From Nitrospirota bacterium (GTDB taxonomy: Bacteria; Nitrospirota; UBA9217): DNA of 64,000 nucleotides. Shown here one piece after another: positions 54,787-63,151 of the stretch (its first letter is position 1; each line of letters opens with the position of its first letter). The translations under genes and the position numbers were made by a program. Under the pieces are notes generated by a model. The model saw only the letters and a list, made by a program, of their open reading frames with translations, was not told the origin of the DNA and made no database searches. The DNA is taken from the NCBI GenBank assembly GCA_963749655.1, contig CAVVOB010000022.1:64001-128000 (forward strand). Direction: 5' to 3'.

Positions 54787-56994
54787 CTACCATGTTTCCG
54801 TTCCGTGGCAGCTGGGACTGCAGGTCGCGCCGTTGAAGTTGACGGAGCTCTTTATCGTCGCCGAAGCGGTCGCTTCCGATATCGGCGCAGTCAGAGACGT
54901 AAAGTGGCTCCCTGCCAGCTTCGTCGTATCGTGGCAGTCAGTGCACGCCCTTTGTTCACTGTAAACGTGACGCCGATGCTGGCCCGAGTAGTAGCTGTTG
55001 TTCTCCGGGCTGCCTGATGAGGAGCCGAGGACGTGGCATGCGGTGCACTGCGAGTTCACATCGATGGTTCCGGTGAGCCAGGACGGAGTGGAACCCGGTG
55101 TCGACTGGGGGGGATTCTGACCGGCCTGGGTCGATGTCTGCGTTCTTGATCCTCCGTGGCAGGAGATGTTCGAGCAGGTGTAGGTCGATGCATTGTACGA
55201 GGCCGTTCCTGATTTCGCATTATAGGTCGCGTCGAGGATCACATCAACGACATTGTTGAAATGATATGCTGTGCCCGAACCTGCGCCCTGATGGCAGGTG
55301 CCGCAGACAACAGACGAGTTGACGTTTGCATGAGGAGCGTGGCTGCCGGCAACGTTGGGGAAGGTTGTCCCGGACGGCGGCGTCCCGTGGCAGGACGCGC
55401 AGTCGCTTGTATTGATCGGCCAGGAGTGGCACGAAGCACATGACGGGCCGCTCGAGGAGACGCCGGTCAGATTTGTTCCATGACAATAGACGTTCGAACA
55501 GGAAGTCGTTCCGTTTGCGTAGGCATAGGCACTGTGGTTCCGCTGTACATCGGGGTACCAGCTGAGAAGGTGGACCTTGGTCTGGTCCTGCATATGGCAG
55601 CTCTTGCAGGCCACATGGGTGCCGCCGCCAAGGTAGTCCGTGCCGTGGCATTTCTGGCAGACCGTGTTGTCTGCAAGCGCCGATGTCTTATGGTCCGCGA
55701 CGACCCAAGCTGCCGCAGGATGGTCCAGGCCCGGTCCATTATGGCAGCTGTAACAACTCGTGCCGGTTGTTCCTCCCTGGTAGTCCGAGCCGTGGCAGGT
55801 TTTGCAGACGGAGAAATCCTGTTCCGCACTGACGCCGTGTTGTGTCGGGTCGGACCAGCCGGCAGGGTGGCCGACCTGAGCATGACAGAGCGTGCTGTTG
55901 AAACACCCGGGAGCGGTCCCTGCTGCCGCGGGCGGAGAAGGCTGCACCGAGGAGTTTGCGCCGTTCGTATGACAGAGCGCGCAGACCGTGGCGTTTCCTT
56001 CATTCGTGGTCGTATGGGTATAGGTGCCGTCGCGCCAGGGCTTGGGCGGATGGGGCGCGTTCACGCCGTGGCAGGAGGAACAGGCCGTGTTGGCAATGCC
56101 GCCGGAGAAGTCGGTGCCGTGGCACTCCTGGCATGAAGCAAAGCCGTTTGCCTGGGATTTTGCGCTGGCTCCGTGCTGGGCCGGGTCGGACCAGCCCGCA
56201 GCGTGGCCCACCGTTCCGTGGCAGAGCGTGTTGTTAAAACATCCGGGAGCGGTCCTTGCTGCCGCGGCCGGAGAAGGCTGCACCGAGGAGTTCGCGCCGT
56301 TCGTATGGCAGAGCGCGCAGACCGTGGCGTTCCCTTCATTCGTGGTCGTATGGGTATAGGTGCTGTCGCGCCAGGGCGCGGCCGGATGGGGCGCGTTCAC
56401 GCCGTGGCAGGAGGAACAGGCCGTGTTGGCAATGCCGCCGGAGAAGTCGGTGCCGTGGCACTCCTGGCATGAAGCAAAGCCGTTTGCCTGGGATTTTGCG
56501 CTGGCGCCGTGCTGGGCCGGGTCGGACCAGCCCGCAGCGTGGCCCACTGTCCCGTGGCAGAGCGTGTTGTTGAAACATCCGGGAGCGGTCCCTGCTGCCG
56601 CGGCCGGAGAAGGCTGCACCGAGGAATTCGCGCCGTTCGTATGGCAGAGCGCGCAGATCGAGGCATTCCCTTCGTCTGTCGATGTGTGCGTGTACGTGCT
56701 GCTGTCGCGCCAGGGCTTGGGCGGATGGGGCGCATTCACGCCGTGGCAGGAAGAACAGGCCGTATCGGCCATGCCGCCGGAGAAGTCGGAGCCATGGCAC
56801 TCCTGGCATGAAGAAAAGCCGTCGGCTTTCTTGGCCGCAGCGCCATGGGTACCTGCGCCGGACCAGCCTGCCGCATGGCGGCCCGTTGCGGGATCGATGA
56901 CCCTGTCTTTGCTTGCCGTGCTGCACGCCGCAGCGAGCATGATCAGGCCCGCACAGGACATGATGAGAACAACTATCCTCGTTCTGGAAAACAT
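54787..56994 (-). CDS. Multiheme c-type cytochrome lipoprotein (CxxCH / CxxxxCH type)
   Basis: Lipobox LAAAC. I count 18 CxxCH, 3 CX5CH, 2 CX4CH and 1 CX3CH in 735 aa. Confidence 0.92.
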   Translation of the reverse strand: MFSRTRIVVLIMSCAGLIMLAAACSTASKDRVIDPATGRHAAGWSGAGTHGAAAKKADGFSSCQECHGSDFSGGMADTACSSCHGVNAPHPPKPWRDSSTYTHTSTDEGNASICALCHTNGANSSVQPSPAAAAGTAPGCFNNTLCHGTVGHAAGWSDPAQHGASAKSQANGFASCQECHGTDFSGGIANTACSSCHGVNAPHPAAPWRDSTYTHTTTNEGNATVCALCHTNGANSSVQPSPAAAARTAPGCFNNTLCHGTVGHAAGWSDPAQHGASAKSQANGFASCQECHGTDFSGGIANTACSSCHGVNAPHPPKPWRDGTYTHTTTNEGNATVCALCHTNGANSSVQPSPPAAAGTAPGCFNSTLCHAQVGHPAGWSDPTQHGVSAEQDFSVCKTCHGSDYQGGTTGTSCYSCHNGPGLDHPAAAWVVADHKTSALADNTVCQKCHGTDYLGGGTHVACKSCHMQDQTKVHLLSWYPDVQRNHSAYAYANGTTSCSNVYCHGTNLTGVSSSGPSCASCHSWPINTSDCASCHGTPPSGTTFPNVAGSHAPHANVNSSVVCGTCHQGAGSGTAYHFNNVVDVILDATYNAKSGTASYNASTYTCSNISCHGGSRTQTSTQAGQNPPQSTPGSTPSWLTGTIDVNSQCTACHVLGSSSGSPENNSYYSGQHRRHVYSEQRACTDCHDTTKLAGSHFTSLTAPISEATASATIKSSVNFNGATCSPSCHGTETW
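55860..56870 (-). repeat. Three tandem ~336-bp (112-aa) intragenic repeats
   Basis: The unit H.AGWS..CQECH..CSSCH..CALCH..CFNNTLCH recurs with near-identical DNA at a 336-bp period. Boundaries approximate. Confidence 0.9.
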
Positions 56995-57382: not shown

Positions 57383-59362
57383 CTACAATGTTTTCCATAC
57401 CTCGTTCGAATAGCTGCTTTCCTGGCCGGAAATGTCAAGGTCGGTCACGGCGAAATAATACGTTCCCGCAGAGAGGTTCAAAGTATAGGTGACTACCGAC
57501 ACCCCGGGATTGGGAACGTCCACGGTTTTGTTGTAGCTCAGAGACGACGTTCCATAGTAGATCCGGTAGCTGCTGACGGCTGTCAGCGAACTCAGGGTTG
57601 ACCCGTCCACATAGGTCGTCGGAGCGTCCCAGGTCAGCGTCAGCGCACTGGTTCCTGCCACGACGGTGAGACCGGTGGTTCCTGAAACGCCGCCTGATGT
57701 CGCCGTGATAGAGGCGGATCCGGCAGCTACTCCGGAAGCAAGTCCCTTGGAACCTGAAGCGTTGCTGATGGTCGCAACGCCGGTGCTGGAAGAGCTCCAA
57801 GTCGCTGAGTTCGTCAGGACCTGCGTAGAACCGTCCGTATACGCGCCCGTTGCAACGAACTGCTGTGTCGTTCCCGCGCCGATGCTTGGATTGGACGGTG
57901 TGACGGCGATGGAGACCAGGGTCGCCGAGGTCACCGCGAGAGTGGTCGAGCCCAAGACGCTGCCCGACGTTGCCGTTATCGTGGTTGAGCCGACTGCCAC
58001 GCTGGTTGCCGCGCCCCGGGCGCCTGTTGCATTGCTGATGGTTGCAATACCGGTGCTGGAAGAGCTCCAGGTCACCGAATTCGTCAGTACCTGCGTAGAA
58101 CCGTCGGTGTAGGTGCCGGTGGCTGCGAACTGCTGTGCCGTTCCCTTGGCGATGCTGGGATTGGACGGCGTCACCGCGATGGATATGAGTGTCGCCGAGG
58201 TCACCGTGAGGGCGGCTGAACCAGAAATGCTGCCCGACGATGCCGCGACTGTGGTTGAGCCGACAGCCAGGGAAGTTGCCGCGCCCTGAGAACCTGCAGC
58301 ATTGCTGACGGTCGCAACTGCCTGATTTGAAGATTCCCAAGCTACCGAGTTCGTAAGGGTCTGCGTGGACCCGTCGGAGTAGGTGCCAATGGCAACGAAC
58401 TGCTGTGCTGTTCCCTTGGCGATGCTGGGGCTGGACGGTGTGACAGCGATGGAGACCAGGGTCGCCGAGGTCACCGTGAGGGTGGTCGAGCCTGAGATGC
58501 CGCCTGATGTTGCCGAGATCGTGGTGGAGCCGACTGCCACAGATGTTACTGCGCCCCGGGAACCTGAATCGTTGCTGATCGATGCAACGCCGGTGCTGGA
58601 AGAGCTCCACGACACGCCTTCCGTCAGATCCTGCACCGAGTTGTCCGAGAAAGTGCCGGTGGCGATAAACTGCTGGGCGGTTCCCTTGGCAATACTGGGA
58701 TTGGTCGGTGTGACCGAGATGGAGGCCAGGGTCACCGAGGTTACTGTCAGGGTGGCCGAGGCCGAGATATTTTCGGACGCTGCCGTGATCGTTGTTGAAC
58801 CGGCGCTCACAGCCGTGGCCAGTCCGCTGCTGACCGTTGCTACGGCCTGGCTCGAAGAGGTCCATACTGCTGATGCCGTCAAGTCCTGCGTCGTACCGTC
58901 TGAAAAAGTGCCGACGGCCGTAAATCTCTGCGTCGTACCCTTGGCGATGGATCCCCCTGTGGGAGTGACTGCGATGGAGACCAGCGTTGCATCGGTTACG
59001 CTGACCGTGGTATCAGCCTCAATGTCGCCCGAGGAGGCCTTGATGGTGGCAGAGCCGGATTTTTTTCCCTTTACGTGGCCCGGGCTGTCGATCTCGGCTG
59101 TCGATGAGTCGGAGGAAGTCCAGGTGACGTACTTGGTCAGGTCCCGCGTCGACTTGTCGGAGTACACGCCCGTGGCAACGAACTGTTGATCGGTGTTTTT
59201 TGCCAACGCCGCATTGACCGGGGTAATAGAAATGGAGGCGAGCGTCGCTCCGTCCCCGGTTCCCTTTGACGGCCCCTGGGGGCTGCCGGCGCCGCACGCT
59301 GCCAGGCCTGCTGCAATCAGCGAAACCGTCAGTAGAAAGAAGCCCGTCCTTGACTTGATCAT
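57383..59362 (-). CDS. Surface lipoprotein with six Big_2 (Lig-like) Ig repeats and a C-terminal FN3-like domain
   Basis: Lipobox LAAC, six L.SI.VTP..SIAKGT.QQF.A.G.YSDGS..LT..V.WSSS units, C-terminal LTWDAP..YRIYYG..YYFAVT..ESSYSNEV. GAGGAGG Shine-Dalgarno before the ATG at 59362. Confidence 0.9.
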   Translation of the reverse strand: MIKSRTGFFLLTVSLIAAGLAACGAGSPQGPSKGTGDGATLASISITPVNAALAKNTDQQFVATGVYSDKSTRDLTKYVTWTSSDSSTAEIDSPGHVKGKKSGSATIKASSGDIEADTTVSVTDATLVSIAVTPTGGSIAKGTTQRFTAVGTFSDGTTQDLTASAVWTSSSQAVATVSSGLATAVSAGSTTITAASENISASATLTVTSVTLASISVTPTNPSIAKGTAQQFIATGTFSDNSVQDLTEGVSWSSSSTGVASISNDSGSRGAVTSVAVGSTTISATSGGISGSTTLTVTSATLVSIAVTPSSPSIAKGTAQQFVAIGTYSDGSTQTLTNSVAWESSNQAVATVSNAAGSQGAATSLAVGSTTVAASSGSISGSAALTVTSATLISIAVTPSNPSIAKGTAQQFAATGTYTDGSTQVLTNSVTWSSSSTGIATISNATGARGAATSVAVGSTTITATSGSVLGSTTLAVTSATLVSIAVTPSNPSIGAGTTQQFVATGAYTDGSTQVLTNSATWSSSSTGVATISNASGSKGLASGVAAGSASITATSGGVSGTTGLTVVAGTSALTLTWDAPTTYVDGSTLSSLTAVSSYRIYYGTSSLSYNKTVDVPNPGVSVVTYTLNLSAGTYYFAVTDLDISGQESSYSNEVWKTL

Positions 59363-59406
59363 GTTGTTTTCCTCCTCTGCTAGAGCGATTAATAAACCGG
59401 TGATCA

Positions 59407-59498
59407 TCTCTGGCGGCTCGGCGGACATTGGAGCTTGATGCTCGTTAGTCCCGTTGCTCTGCGTCCCAGGGTTTCCCCTGGTTTGCTCTGAGCAGAGA
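59407..59498 (-). ncRNA. GEMM-I (c-di-GMP-I family) riboswitch, A20 variant predicted to bind 3',3'-cGAMP
   Basis: Minus strand UCUCUG CUCAG A GCAAACC AGGG GAAA CCCU GG GACGC AGAGC AACGGGACUAAC GAGC AUCAA GCUC CAAUGUCCGCCGAGCCG C CAGAGA. P1, P2 with GAAA tetraloop, P3 and the GACGC-A core are all present. Confidence 0.88.
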
Positions 59499-59563
59499 AG
59501 GTCTCGAACATGGATTTCAGCGCCGGCTATCACCAGGGCCCATGCCCTTCATTCATTGGCCGC

Positions 59564-59631
59564 ATGTTACTCGAAGCGCGAAATAGAGTCTGTGACCATG
59601 GATACAATAAATAGTGTGATCTCGATCACAC
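59564..59631 (-). promoter_or_regulatory. CRP/FNR-family class II promoter with two operator sites
   Basis: Consensus TGTGA-TCTCGA-TCACA at 59615-59630, a second site TGTGA-CCATGG-ATACA at 59591-59606, and a minus-strand -10 TAACAT at 59569-59564. Confidence 0.7.
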
Positions 59632-59842
59632 GATTAAAAGGCCCTTTCGCGAGCGAAATTTTTTTCGCGCAAATTTTCGATCGTGCCTCATAGTCGGGTC
59701 TTCGGCGTACGTGCACCGAAGCGACAGGGCGGCGGTGAGGGCCTCTTTGCGGACTGCGCGGAGCAGGGGGCGGCCGCAAGAGAGTGTGTCTGAAGTGACC
59801 GGCGTTTTTCTTCTGAAAACAGGCAATTAATCTGCTTTCCGT

Positions 59843-62338: not shown

Positions 62339-62496
62339 TTTGCCGCAGTGAACACGACGGGGTATTTTTAGGGTATGTCATGTGTCGAGTGAGTTGATTA
62401 TTCTTATTTTTTAATGTTTTGCCTTTGCCCACCCATCTTTTTATCCTTGCCATTTTTCTTCGATTCTGGTATATACTAATTAACATCATAAGATAG

Positions 62497-62673
62497 TCCC
62501 CTGCTTTGCGCGTGATGGATATAACTTGTTCCTCGTGAAAAAAAAATAACGGGAGCTGAAATGTGAAAAGGGTGTGCATGCCCAGATTAGACTGGGAAGC
62601 CTGAACTTTTCACCGAGGCACCCACCTGGTAAATACCAGGAATCAAGTCTATCTACACGGCAAAAGCGGGGGA
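62497..62673 (+). ncRNA. ssrS: 6S RNA
   Basis: About 177-nt long hairpin with complementary ends (TCCCCTGCTTT...AAAGCGGGGGA) and a central A-rich bubble. It lies downstream of zapA, its usual position, with TTGCCA...TATACT promoter elements upstream. Confidence 0.85.
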
Positions 62674-63151
62674 TTTTTTTACTCCCTGATTTTTGCACAA
62701 TTGTGTATAGCAACTCATGGCGTACCTGGCCATGATGCCTCAAATAGAGTGAATCAGCGCTAGCCAGCCAGAAGGGAGCAGTCAGTTTTAAGGAAGGCTC
62801 CGGCGCTTGTGATAGTGTAAATGTAACAGCGGAAGAGGAGCACAAGGATGACAGGATCATCCAAGGGCTCCTTCCCGCGCGAAGATTGATTACCAGTAGG
62901 GCAACGTATTGATGCCATGGGGAAATTTACTGTTGTACCATATAAGTACCATGAGGGAACGGGATTGAATTCACCGGGGGAGCAGTACTATCCAGCGCAG
63001 CTGAACTTTGGACAGGGAAACTCCCTTAAAAATAAACCGGTTGCCCCGCGCCTTCTCATCATCACCCCAGGGCCGAGCTTGCCTGATCCGGTCTGACCCC
63101 CTTCGCCCCCTATCACAGGTAGTCCGCGTAAGCCCTCCCGACGTATTTACC

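Follow-up and report, generated by a model that had tools for sequence, protein, structure and literature searches.

An A-type GEMM-I riboswitch candidate in a Nitrospirota bacterium, predicted to control translation of a Big_2 lipoprotein gene by sequestering its Shine-Dalgarno sequence

How might an aptamer of the cyclic di-GMP (c-di-GMP) class I family regulate the gene behind it when its leader carries no intrinsic terminator? The question is raised by a stretch of 64,000 nucleotides (nt) from contig CAVVOB010000022.1 of a Nitrospirota bacterium (assembly GCA_963749655.1; GTDB lineage UBA9217), hereafter the window, in which such an aptamer precedes a lipoprotein gene with six Big_2 domains on the minus strand. 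The answer that we favour, with a probability of roughly 60%, is an A-type GEMM-I riboswitch that most likely senses 3'3'-cGAMP (cyclic GMP-AMP) and acts as a kinetic translational ON switch for the lipoprotein gene. Within this answer we infer the identity of the ligand, the regulatory sign in vivo and the kinetic control.

The aptamer is readily recognised. Rfam matches 59497-59409 of the minus strand to RF01051 (GEMM-I, or c-di-GMP-I), scoring 59.3 bits where the gathering threshold is 35 (E 4.7e-9). The match covers model positions 1-87 of 87 with all conserved core positions intact, and the Rfam structure line shows two hairpins, P1a with a GAAA tetraloop of the GNRA class and P1b, closed by P1. 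The 3' end of the aptamer is found 45 nt ahead of the ATG at 59362 on the same strand, which places it in cis in the 5' leader. At model position 11, directly 5' of the first P1a pair, the consensus has G and the window has A59487, aligned with high posterior; we take this position to be the equivalent of G20 in the Vc2 aptamer and of A14 in Gs1761, following the Vc2 numbering. GCC at 59414-59412 stands where the consensus has 'gCC', ahead of the P1 3' strand, and one of its Cs may, by the same numbering, correspond to C92/C75, the base that pairs with the ligand's guanine. G20 of Vc2 recognises one guanine of c-di-GMP, whereas in cGAMP-binding riboswitches the position is taken by an adenine, A14 in Gs1761, whose partner is the adenine of the ligand (PMC6140456). 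By this G20-to-A criterion the aptamer is, as judged from its sequence, A-type GEMM-I and falls into the GEMM-Ib subclass.

The initial annotation of this locus, made from the DNA letters, had described a helix of about 16 base pairs (bp), with one G-U pair and one bulge, between the 5' strand of the aptamer and a segment containing the Shine-Dalgarno (SD) sequence. The description is exact, and the helix is also present in the minimum free energy (MFE) structure. The minus-strand sequences are CCUUCUCUGCUCAGAGC for 59501-59485 and GCUCUAGCAGAGGAGG for 59386-59371, with 16 pairs between them. A first arm of 11 pairs extends from C59501-G59371 to U59491-A59381 and contains the sole G-U pair (U59498-G59374), a second arm of five pairs extends from A59489-U59382 to C59485-G59386, and C59490 is bulged between the two. 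All five bases of GGAGG (59375-59371), which lies 8 nt ahead of the ATG at 59362-59360, are within this anti-SD helix. P1 (59498-59493 / 59412-59407) uses the same 5' strand, 59498-59493, so that P1 (UCUCUG/CAGAGA) and the anti-SD helix are mutually exclusive, as had also been claimed. Unconstrained folding of 59520-59340 returned the anti-SD helix in an MFE structure of -64.9 kcal/mol (z = -4.31; 0/200 shuffles fold as well), in which the SD bases have an unpaired probability of 0.000-0.004. The duplex of the two strands alone amounts to -27.2 kcal/mol. When GGAGG was left in place and only the remainder of the 3' segment (23 nt) was permuted, 0/5000 shuffles reached this value (mean -10.7, standard deviation 2.5, best -23.4).

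A terminator scan found no intrinsic terminator on the leader strand between the aptamer and the start codon, the best local hairpin having -5.7 kcal/mol. The linker (59406-59387) holds a weak hairpin of this energy (59419-59414 / 59399-59394) and a broken U-tract at the site where relatives carry their terminator. From its sequence the hairpin looks like a vestigial terminator, the stems of relatives at this place having -19.8 to -23.6 kcal/mol.

Relatives were sought by scanning named genome contigs for the A-type 5' core. This gave 77 stretches, with about 70 chance matches expected for 17 fixed bases, and we kept the 71 whose alignment to the aptamer spans 70 nt or more, corresponding to 51 unique leaders. 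These come overwhelmingly from Nitrospirota, Nitrospirae, Thermodesulfovibrionia or Thermodesulfovibrionales; in many cases the window's GTDB relatives carry an identical leader. Among the literature matches listed for riboswitch or cGAMP together with Nitrospirota, we found no report that links them. The platform could be surveyed in 50 leaders, one of the 51 being too short. In most of them the aptamer is followed by ...CUGGCGG and a U-run, forming a terminator whose 5' strand, GCCGCCAGAG, is the aptamer's own 3' strand; three examples gave the stem energies quoted above. Thirteen of the 50 lack this terminator when inspected by eye, and ten of these carry GCU[CU]...CAGAGGAGG ahead of the start codon. 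The ten anti-SD leaders (the window, L009, L010, L015, L017, L020, L038, L039, L093 and L094) represent seven genomes and at least three GTDB genera. The other three are without a strong helix: L018 (-14.3 kcal/mol), L019 (-10.8 kcal/mol) and L098 (-11.7 kcal/mol), the last with a degenerate aptamer.

We compared the leaders by the duplex energy of a 19-nt 5' strand with the 28 nt ahead of the start codon, dropping eight leaders with no usable start or landmark. The ten anti-SD leaders range from -14.7 to -27.2 kcal/mol (mean -21.2) and the other 32 scored leaders from -5.7 to -15.6 kcal/mol (mean -11.1). Regrouping by a terminator regular expression alone gave a mean of -17.7 for leaders without a terminator (n = 15, including L012 and L087, whose visible terminators the expression missed) and of -11.1 for those with one (n = 27); the difference has a one-sided Mann-Whitney p of 0.0005, for sequences that are kin and not independent. 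Homologous Big_2 lipoproteins, 52-65% identical, are found behind both platform types: the protein behind the terminator-type leader L014 is 62% identical over residues 1-487, and that behind the anti-SD-type leader L010 is 61% identical over residues 1-494.

In a metagenome scan whose only fixed parts were the aptamer core, GGAGG and ATG, at least 121 loci and at least 102 unique leaders were obtained. Among the matches listed, 12 more leaders are of the window type, without a terminator and with duplexes of -14.7 to -27.2 kcal/mol, and 23 unique leaders form a GC-rich lineage with P1 CUCCUG/CAGGAG. In the latter the complement of the P1 5' strand CCUCC is GGAGG itself, and 16/23 have their SD paired there at P≥0.9, so that this lineage attains pairing between the SD and the P1 5' strand with a different P1 and in another register. 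Long GC hairpins without U-tracts were observed in the linkers of the same lineage (L284, L183, L255, L232 and 19 other loci). The Rfam gathering score was passed by all 12 representatives submitted (39.6-68.4 bits), and the leaders of the GC-rich lineage tested in Rfam passed in 5/5 cases. One metagenomic leader, L209, combines a 10-bp terminator stem with U6 and an enclosing 17-bp anti-SD helix (-21.8 kcal/mol); on its sequence it is a plausible evolutionary intermediate and may work as a dual-level switch. A tree of the downstream proteins, built from the 13/20 homologues of at least 480 amino acids (aa), does not separate a single origin of the anti-SD platform from several: 6/10 inner branches are open, and the anti-SD label needs three changes, of which well-supported branches force only one.

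An alignment of the ten anti-SD leaders has 87.5% of 160 cells paired in the proposed register, as against 48.7-61.2% in six slid registers. The anti-SD strand GCU[CU]..CAGAGGAGG is kept while the linker varies, and columns 9-27, which are the aptamer core, are invariant. Several points weigh against a regulated helix, and the first of them come from this comparison. Compensatory changes were seen at 0/16 pairs, of which six never vary, five vary on one side only and five depart by unpaired cells only; a covariation shuffle control was uninformative (500/500) because the 5' strand is the invariant aptamer core. An inherent complementarity of the CU-rich P1 5' strand to GGAGG provides 5-7 bp of the helix for free, and eight terminator-type leaders also pair their SD with the P1 5' strand at P≥0.75 (RNAfold). 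SD pairing probability was dropped as a discriminator of platforms on account of these eight leaders, and duplex energy and length were used instead. Because the P1 strand has this built-in complementarity, only the 9-11 bp beyond the SD are specific to the anti-SD platform, and the support taken from the sequences is conservation of a strand under no other obvious constraint (GCUC...CAGA), not covariation. The free SD pairing in terminator-type leaders and the lack of compensatory changes are what would be expected if the match between the pyrimidines of the P1 strand and the purines of the SD region were due to chance and had no function. However, we consider this explanation very improbable, since the additional 9-11 bp outside the SD are conserved, the GGAGG-preserving shuffles never matched the duplex of the window and leaders without a terminator have much stronger duplexes than those with one.

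The second group of adverse points comes from folding energetics. The masked fold, in which the anti-SD helix is formed, lies 12.7 kcal/mol below the best aptamer-enforced fold, and the ensemble gap between masked and aptamer-compatible structures is 11.4-16.0 kcal/mol, the value varying with the 5' end that is assumed. In this model a gap of 11-16 kcal/mol likely exceeds what ligand binding at physiological concentration supplies. The initial annotation had named folding with and without aptamer constraints as a check of the switch, and the outcome is divided. Enforcing the aptamer raises the unpaired probability of the SD from 0.001-0.005 to 0.07-0.16; however, the SD is then still mostly paired, its partner being CU-rich signal-peptide codons near 59345-59331, and the calculated cost of opening the ribosome footprint in the window copy is 11.7 kcal/mol in the free and 13.2 kcal/mol in the holo state, with no ON gain in this equilibrium model. 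The gain is absent because the SD pairs with the signal-peptide codons, a pairing that appears to be compositional background: 470/1000 shuffles of the coding part are as stable, and local fold energies are alike in the two platform groups (-11.4, n = 10, versus -10.6, n = 31). In relatives the same footprint model favours ON by 5.0-9.7 kcal/mol in 5/7 leaders, with -0.6 and +1.6 in the other two. As a side observation, the self-complementary hexamer UGAUCA occurs on the minus strand at 59401-59406, just after P1, and at 59356-59361, where it overlaps the start codon; one of the aptamer-enforced folds has these copies paired with each other, and the feature is without conservation in relatives.

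Folding of growing transcripts placed P1 in the MFE structure at 3' ends 59406-59397, with the presumed vestigial hairpin competing from 59394 and the anti-SD helix dominating from 59376. A direct path search that started at the apo aptamer fold and ended at the masked one gave a barrier of 5.1 kcal/mol and a return barrier of 28.1 kcal/mol, along a route on which invasion begins at the 3-nt flank CCU and proceeds through P1. Given the large energy gap and a masked fold that is nearly irreversible, any switch here would therefore be kinetic and co-transcriptional, not reversible and thermodynamic. ON would still be favoured in the window because the upstream competitor is present as the SD emerges and the downstream competitor is not yet transcribed.

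The mechanism that we propose runs as follows. The aptamer would fold first during transcription, with P1 complete at 59407, and some 31 nt later the strand GCUCUAGCAGAGGAGG would emerge. With the ligand absent, the 3-nt flank and the unpaired pocket junction would give this strand its entry into P1; the calculated barrier is about 5 kcal/mol, and the strand would then zip into the 16-bp helix, burying GGAGG; with a calculated reverse barrier of about 28 kcal/mol this outcome would be final. Ligand bound within the interval of about 31 nt would hold P1 and the junction bases, A59487 included, for about the residence time of the ligand, and with P1 so held the SD would emerge free and ribosomes could load. 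The earlier proposal that ligand binding locks P1 is thus workable in a kinetic form alone: P1 does form first in growing transcripts, but the masked fold is more stable by 11-16 kcal/mol. The short interval is itself an adverse point, as published rates for the pilM cGAMP riboswitch are slow on the binding side (on-rate ~2e4 per M per s; off-rate ~0.004 per s, a residence of minutes; PMC9262584), and a high ligand concentration or pausing would therefore be needed.

Would a leader that plays no part in switching explain these data as well? SD masked or poorly accessible in both states would be expected of a constitutive structure, with control residing elsewhere (Rho-dependent termination or mRNA stability, for example), or of a decaying relic. 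The far greater stability of the masked fold, the similar footprint costs in both modelled states of the window copy, the linker that resembles a decayed terminator and the three terminator-less relatives without a strong helix (L018, L019 and L098, the last with its degenerate aptamer) all fit such an explanation. The aptamer, however, is intact, at 59.3 bits and with every conserved core position. Moreover, the anti-SD strand is kept across at least three genera while the linker drifts and recurs in the 12 further metagenomic leaders among the matches listed, it invades exactly P1 and the ligand-contacting junction, which is the design expected of a switch and not of a static hairpin, and 5/7 modelled relatives show an ON advantage of 5-10 kcal/mol. 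We therefore regard a constitutive or relic leader as improbable. The translational ON switch first suggested from the sequence is supported in silico, with kinetic control, cGAMP as the likelier ligand and the lack of covariation as amendments: an SD within a helix that competes with P1, the lack of a terminator, retention of the helix in ten genome and 12 listed metagenomic leaders and relatives with an ON sign argue for it, and the lack of covariation and of an equilibrium ON gain argues against it.

To which ligand would such a switch respond? The genome holds seven GEMM-I aptamers, two of A-type and five of G-type. All five G-type aptamers are followed by terminators, and both A-type aptamers are on the same contig, each ahead of a lipoprotein gene. 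The second A-type aptamer (L004, G000:C22:35650-35782, outside the window) is 133 nt long and has a large P1b insertion and a GGCGG/U8 terminator before its lipoprotein gene. The five G-type aptamers (L001, L003, L005, L006 and L007) differ from the Rfam consensus by a swap in the first P1a pair (AAAG-CC...GG-AAAG, not GC...GC). The presence of two aptamer types in one genome suggests, at the level of sequence, two ligands. In Geobacter the cGAMP regulon is described as having riboswitches upstream of genes for extracytoplasmic lipoproteins and cytochromes (PMC6456294).

We searched for a candidate cGAMP cyclase using 28 Pfam GGDEF matches and a six-frame regular-expression scan of the whole genome, which is 86.6% complete. 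The signature of Hypr enzymes is a Ser in place of the Asp that canonical GGDEF enzymes carry at position 348 (PMC6456294). Canonical Asp is found in 16/22 hits of the regular expression, and the genome has at least 16 canonical GHxxGD GGDEF domains. One protein of 539 aa (L146, G000:C19:4721-6337), with a sensor region between transmembrane (TM) segments followed by HAMP, combines the Hypr Ser (GYANGS) with GGDDF; a paralogue of it (L145 652-2040, G000:C13) has Asn in place of Ser (GYAHGN). The second validated cGAMP cyclase of G. sulfurreducens, GSU1937, is described as having the Hypr serine, GGDDF, an N-terminal TM domain and no EAL or HD-GYP (PMC8835794). The 539-aa TM-HAMP-GGDDF protein fits this description, matched by signature and architecture alone. 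Its type was matched in 52/60 genomes of the same GTDB family, and of 30 orthologue loci fetched, 28 carry Ser with GGDD[F/Y] and two lack the motif; the 28 include all five genomes with an anti-SD leader. No canonical GacA-type Hypr GGDEF (Ser with GGDEF) was found among the 28 Pfam matches, nor any SMODS/CD-NTase domain in this 86.6% complete genome. A GAF-GGDEF protein (L129 760-2052, G000:C14) was rejected as a cGAMP synthase: its Ser is accompanied by GGEEF and by a loop that is two residues longer, a combination of Ser, GGEEF and +2 spacing that the Goldilocks model gives as inactive (PMC6456294). Just downstream of the G-type riboswitch L007, a REC-PAS-PAS-GGDEF-EAL gene is split within GGDEF (L137 1453-2880 and 393-1400, G000:C28), which may reflect a frameshift or a fault of the assembly.

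Because of the A at the G20 position, the balance of this signature-level argument tilts towards 3'3'-cGAMP over c-di-GMP. The last two points that count against our reading bear on this step. A59487 is no proof of cGAMP selectivity, as the G20A change by itself makes Vc2 accept both ligands, with c-di-GMP bound via a protonated adenine (PMC6140456), and the Ser/GGDDF protein is likened to GSU1937 by signature and architecture only. A leader of the same architecture and ON logic could thus have c-di-GMP, or both dinucleotides, as its physiological ligand. The Rfam family is that of c-di-GMP-I, natural bispecific A-type aptamers have been described (PMC6140456), canonical GGDEF domains are plentiful with no match to SMODS/CD-NTase, and the only candidate for a cGAMP synthase rests on a two-feature signature. 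However, five G-type beside two A-type aptamers in one genome would be hard to explain if both types sensed c-di-GMP, A-type aptamers precede lipoprotein or cytochrome genes as in the Geobacter cGAMP regulon (PMC6456294), and the enzyme with Ser and GGDD[F/Y] has been kept in nearly all orthologue loci. We therefore hold a switch for c-di-GMP or for both ligands to be unlikely, although it is the strongest of the competing explanations.

A promoter scan gave no convincing sigma-70 promoter on the leader strand. The locus is present as contigs in four soil metatranscriptome runs of a single study. One contig joins 59100-59469, that is the coding sequence, the SD, the linker and most of the aptamer; a second (X2) bridges 59445-59533, stops at 59533 and continues in other letters, which we take to be an Illumina sequencing adapter. 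The contigs have no differences listed within 59371-59469 and no cover at 59534-59800, the latter not being evidence of absence. Such contigs show neither RNA ends nor strand, and DNA may occur in such libraries, so that they offer a weak hint that the 5' flank of the helix occurs in RNA-library assemblies and an equally weak hint of an RNA 5' end near 59533.

The features of the locus are collected in Table 1. For the lipoprotein gene a longer GTG-initiated frame that reads through the riboswitch was considered and rejected as the gene start, the homologues aligning from residue 1 of the ATG form. The multihaem cytochrome gene that follows is separated by a gap of 389 nt, which has one promoter-like site (57104-57076) and, on this strand, nothing resembling a terminator; control by the riboswitch possibly extends to this gene. 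Within the cytochrome, a unit of about 110 aa that has several CxxCH motifs occurs three times in nearly identical form. On the other side, in the divergent intergenic region, 59615-59630 is a perfect 16-bp palindrome, TGTGA-N6-TCACA, which lies about 115 nt upstream of the aptamer and resembles the CRP/FNR-type consensus. It is the sole match in the window, where 1.35 chance matches are expected with one mismatch allowed, and the terminator scan flagged it too, as a hairpin with a T-rich tail. The window also contains a full-length 6S RNA at 62495-62676 of the plus strand (RF00013, 100.6 bits against a gathering score of 46.4).

Table 1. Coordinates of the candidate riboswitch and the genes behind it (window positions)
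Feature	Position	Strand	Basis or remark
GEMM-I aptamer, A-type	59409..59497	-	Rfam RF01051
A at the presumed G20-equivalent position	59487	-	Rfam alignment; predicted to pair with the ligand's alpha base
P1 5' strand UCUCUG	59493..59498	-	Sequence; P1 in MFE of transcripts ending 59406-59397
P1 3' strand CAGAGA	59407..59412	-	Sequence; folding
Anti-SD helix, 5' strand (3-nt 5' flank, P1 5' strand, pocket junction including A59487, first P1a pair)	59485..59501	-	
Anti-SD helix, 3' strand GCUCUAGCAGAGGAGG (CAGAG mimics P1 3' strand; SD core GGAGG 59375-59371)	59371..59386	-	
Linker with apparently vestigial terminator	59387..59406	-	Folding; terminator scan
Start codon ATG	59360..59362	-	Lipoprotein signal peptide, lipobox LAAC follows
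Putatively regulated gene, 659-aa lipoprotein with six Big_2 domains	57383..59362	-	Pfam PF02368, E 1.4e-66, 6 stretches
Next gene, 735-aa multihaem cytochrome	54787..56994	-	Pfam Cytochrome_C7, Cytochrom_c3_2

Taken together, these data lead us to a wider and more tentative hypothesis, to which we give somewhat less than even odds. A family of Thermodesulfovibrionia-type Nitrospirota may run a cGAMP circuit like that of Geobacter, in which a conserved GSU1937-like Ser/GGDDF cyclase feeds A-type GEMM-I switches on Big_2 lipoproteins and multihaem cytochromes. Its expression platform would have been rebuilt from a terminator into a one-shot, kinetically trapped, SD-sequestering switch, with the dual-platform intermediate L209 still extant. 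The authors of PMC8835794 anticipated cGAMP-sensing riboswitches in other bacteria. If the hypothesis is true, riboswitch-mediated cGAMP signalling reaches beyond Geobacter and its relatives into an uncultured Nitrospirota lineage and again adjoins extracytoplasmic and multihaem proteins. Moreover, the leaders offer a natural series in which the platform turns over while the aptamer stays fixed and the gene homologous: terminator only, terminator with anti-SD helix, and anti-SD helix only. If confirmed, the compact leader of about 140 nt might be usable as a translational cGAMP reporter part.

Lastly, the leader can be set beside known systems. Some members of the c-di-GMP-I class have been proposed to exert their control via the ribosome-binding site, and sequestration of the SD by a P1 5' strand is a textbook mechanism among riboswitches. 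The add adenine riboswitch has the same mutual exclusion between a helix of aptamer strand and SD and a ligand-stabilised P1. The add switch is described as thermodynamically reversible, whereas the 28 kcal/mol reverse barrier and the bias of 11-16 kcal/mol calculated for the window predict a one-shot kinetic switch. The Vc2 aptamer of Vibrio cholerae belongs to the same family (RF01051) but has G20 where the window has A, and it is described as an OFF switch for tfoY (bioRxiv 10.1101/617340), as opposed to the ON sign proposed here. The GEMM-Ib riboswitches of Geobacter (pilM Gmet_0970; Gs1761, pgcA) share with the window leader the aptamer family, A at the G20-equivalent position, ON logic and a place upstream of extracytoplasmic lipoprotein or cytochrome genes (PMC6456294). 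In the pilM riboswitch ligand binding prevents a terminator and turns expression ON, and a short co-transcriptional decision interval is expected there as in the window (PMC9262584). This terminator design, in which the 3' strand of the aptamer is the 5' strand of the terminator, is that of most homologous leaders in the window's relatives, and as these stand before homologous genes, the same ON sign supports an ON reading for the window. The characterised switches of the Geobacter type are, as described, transcription terminators (PMC9262584). In contrast, the window leader has no terminator; its competitor mimics the P1 3' strand and carries the SD, the P1 5' strand would switch partner, the predicted output is translation initiation, and the host is a member of Nitrospirota of the Thermodesulfovibrionia type and not of Desulfuromonadota.

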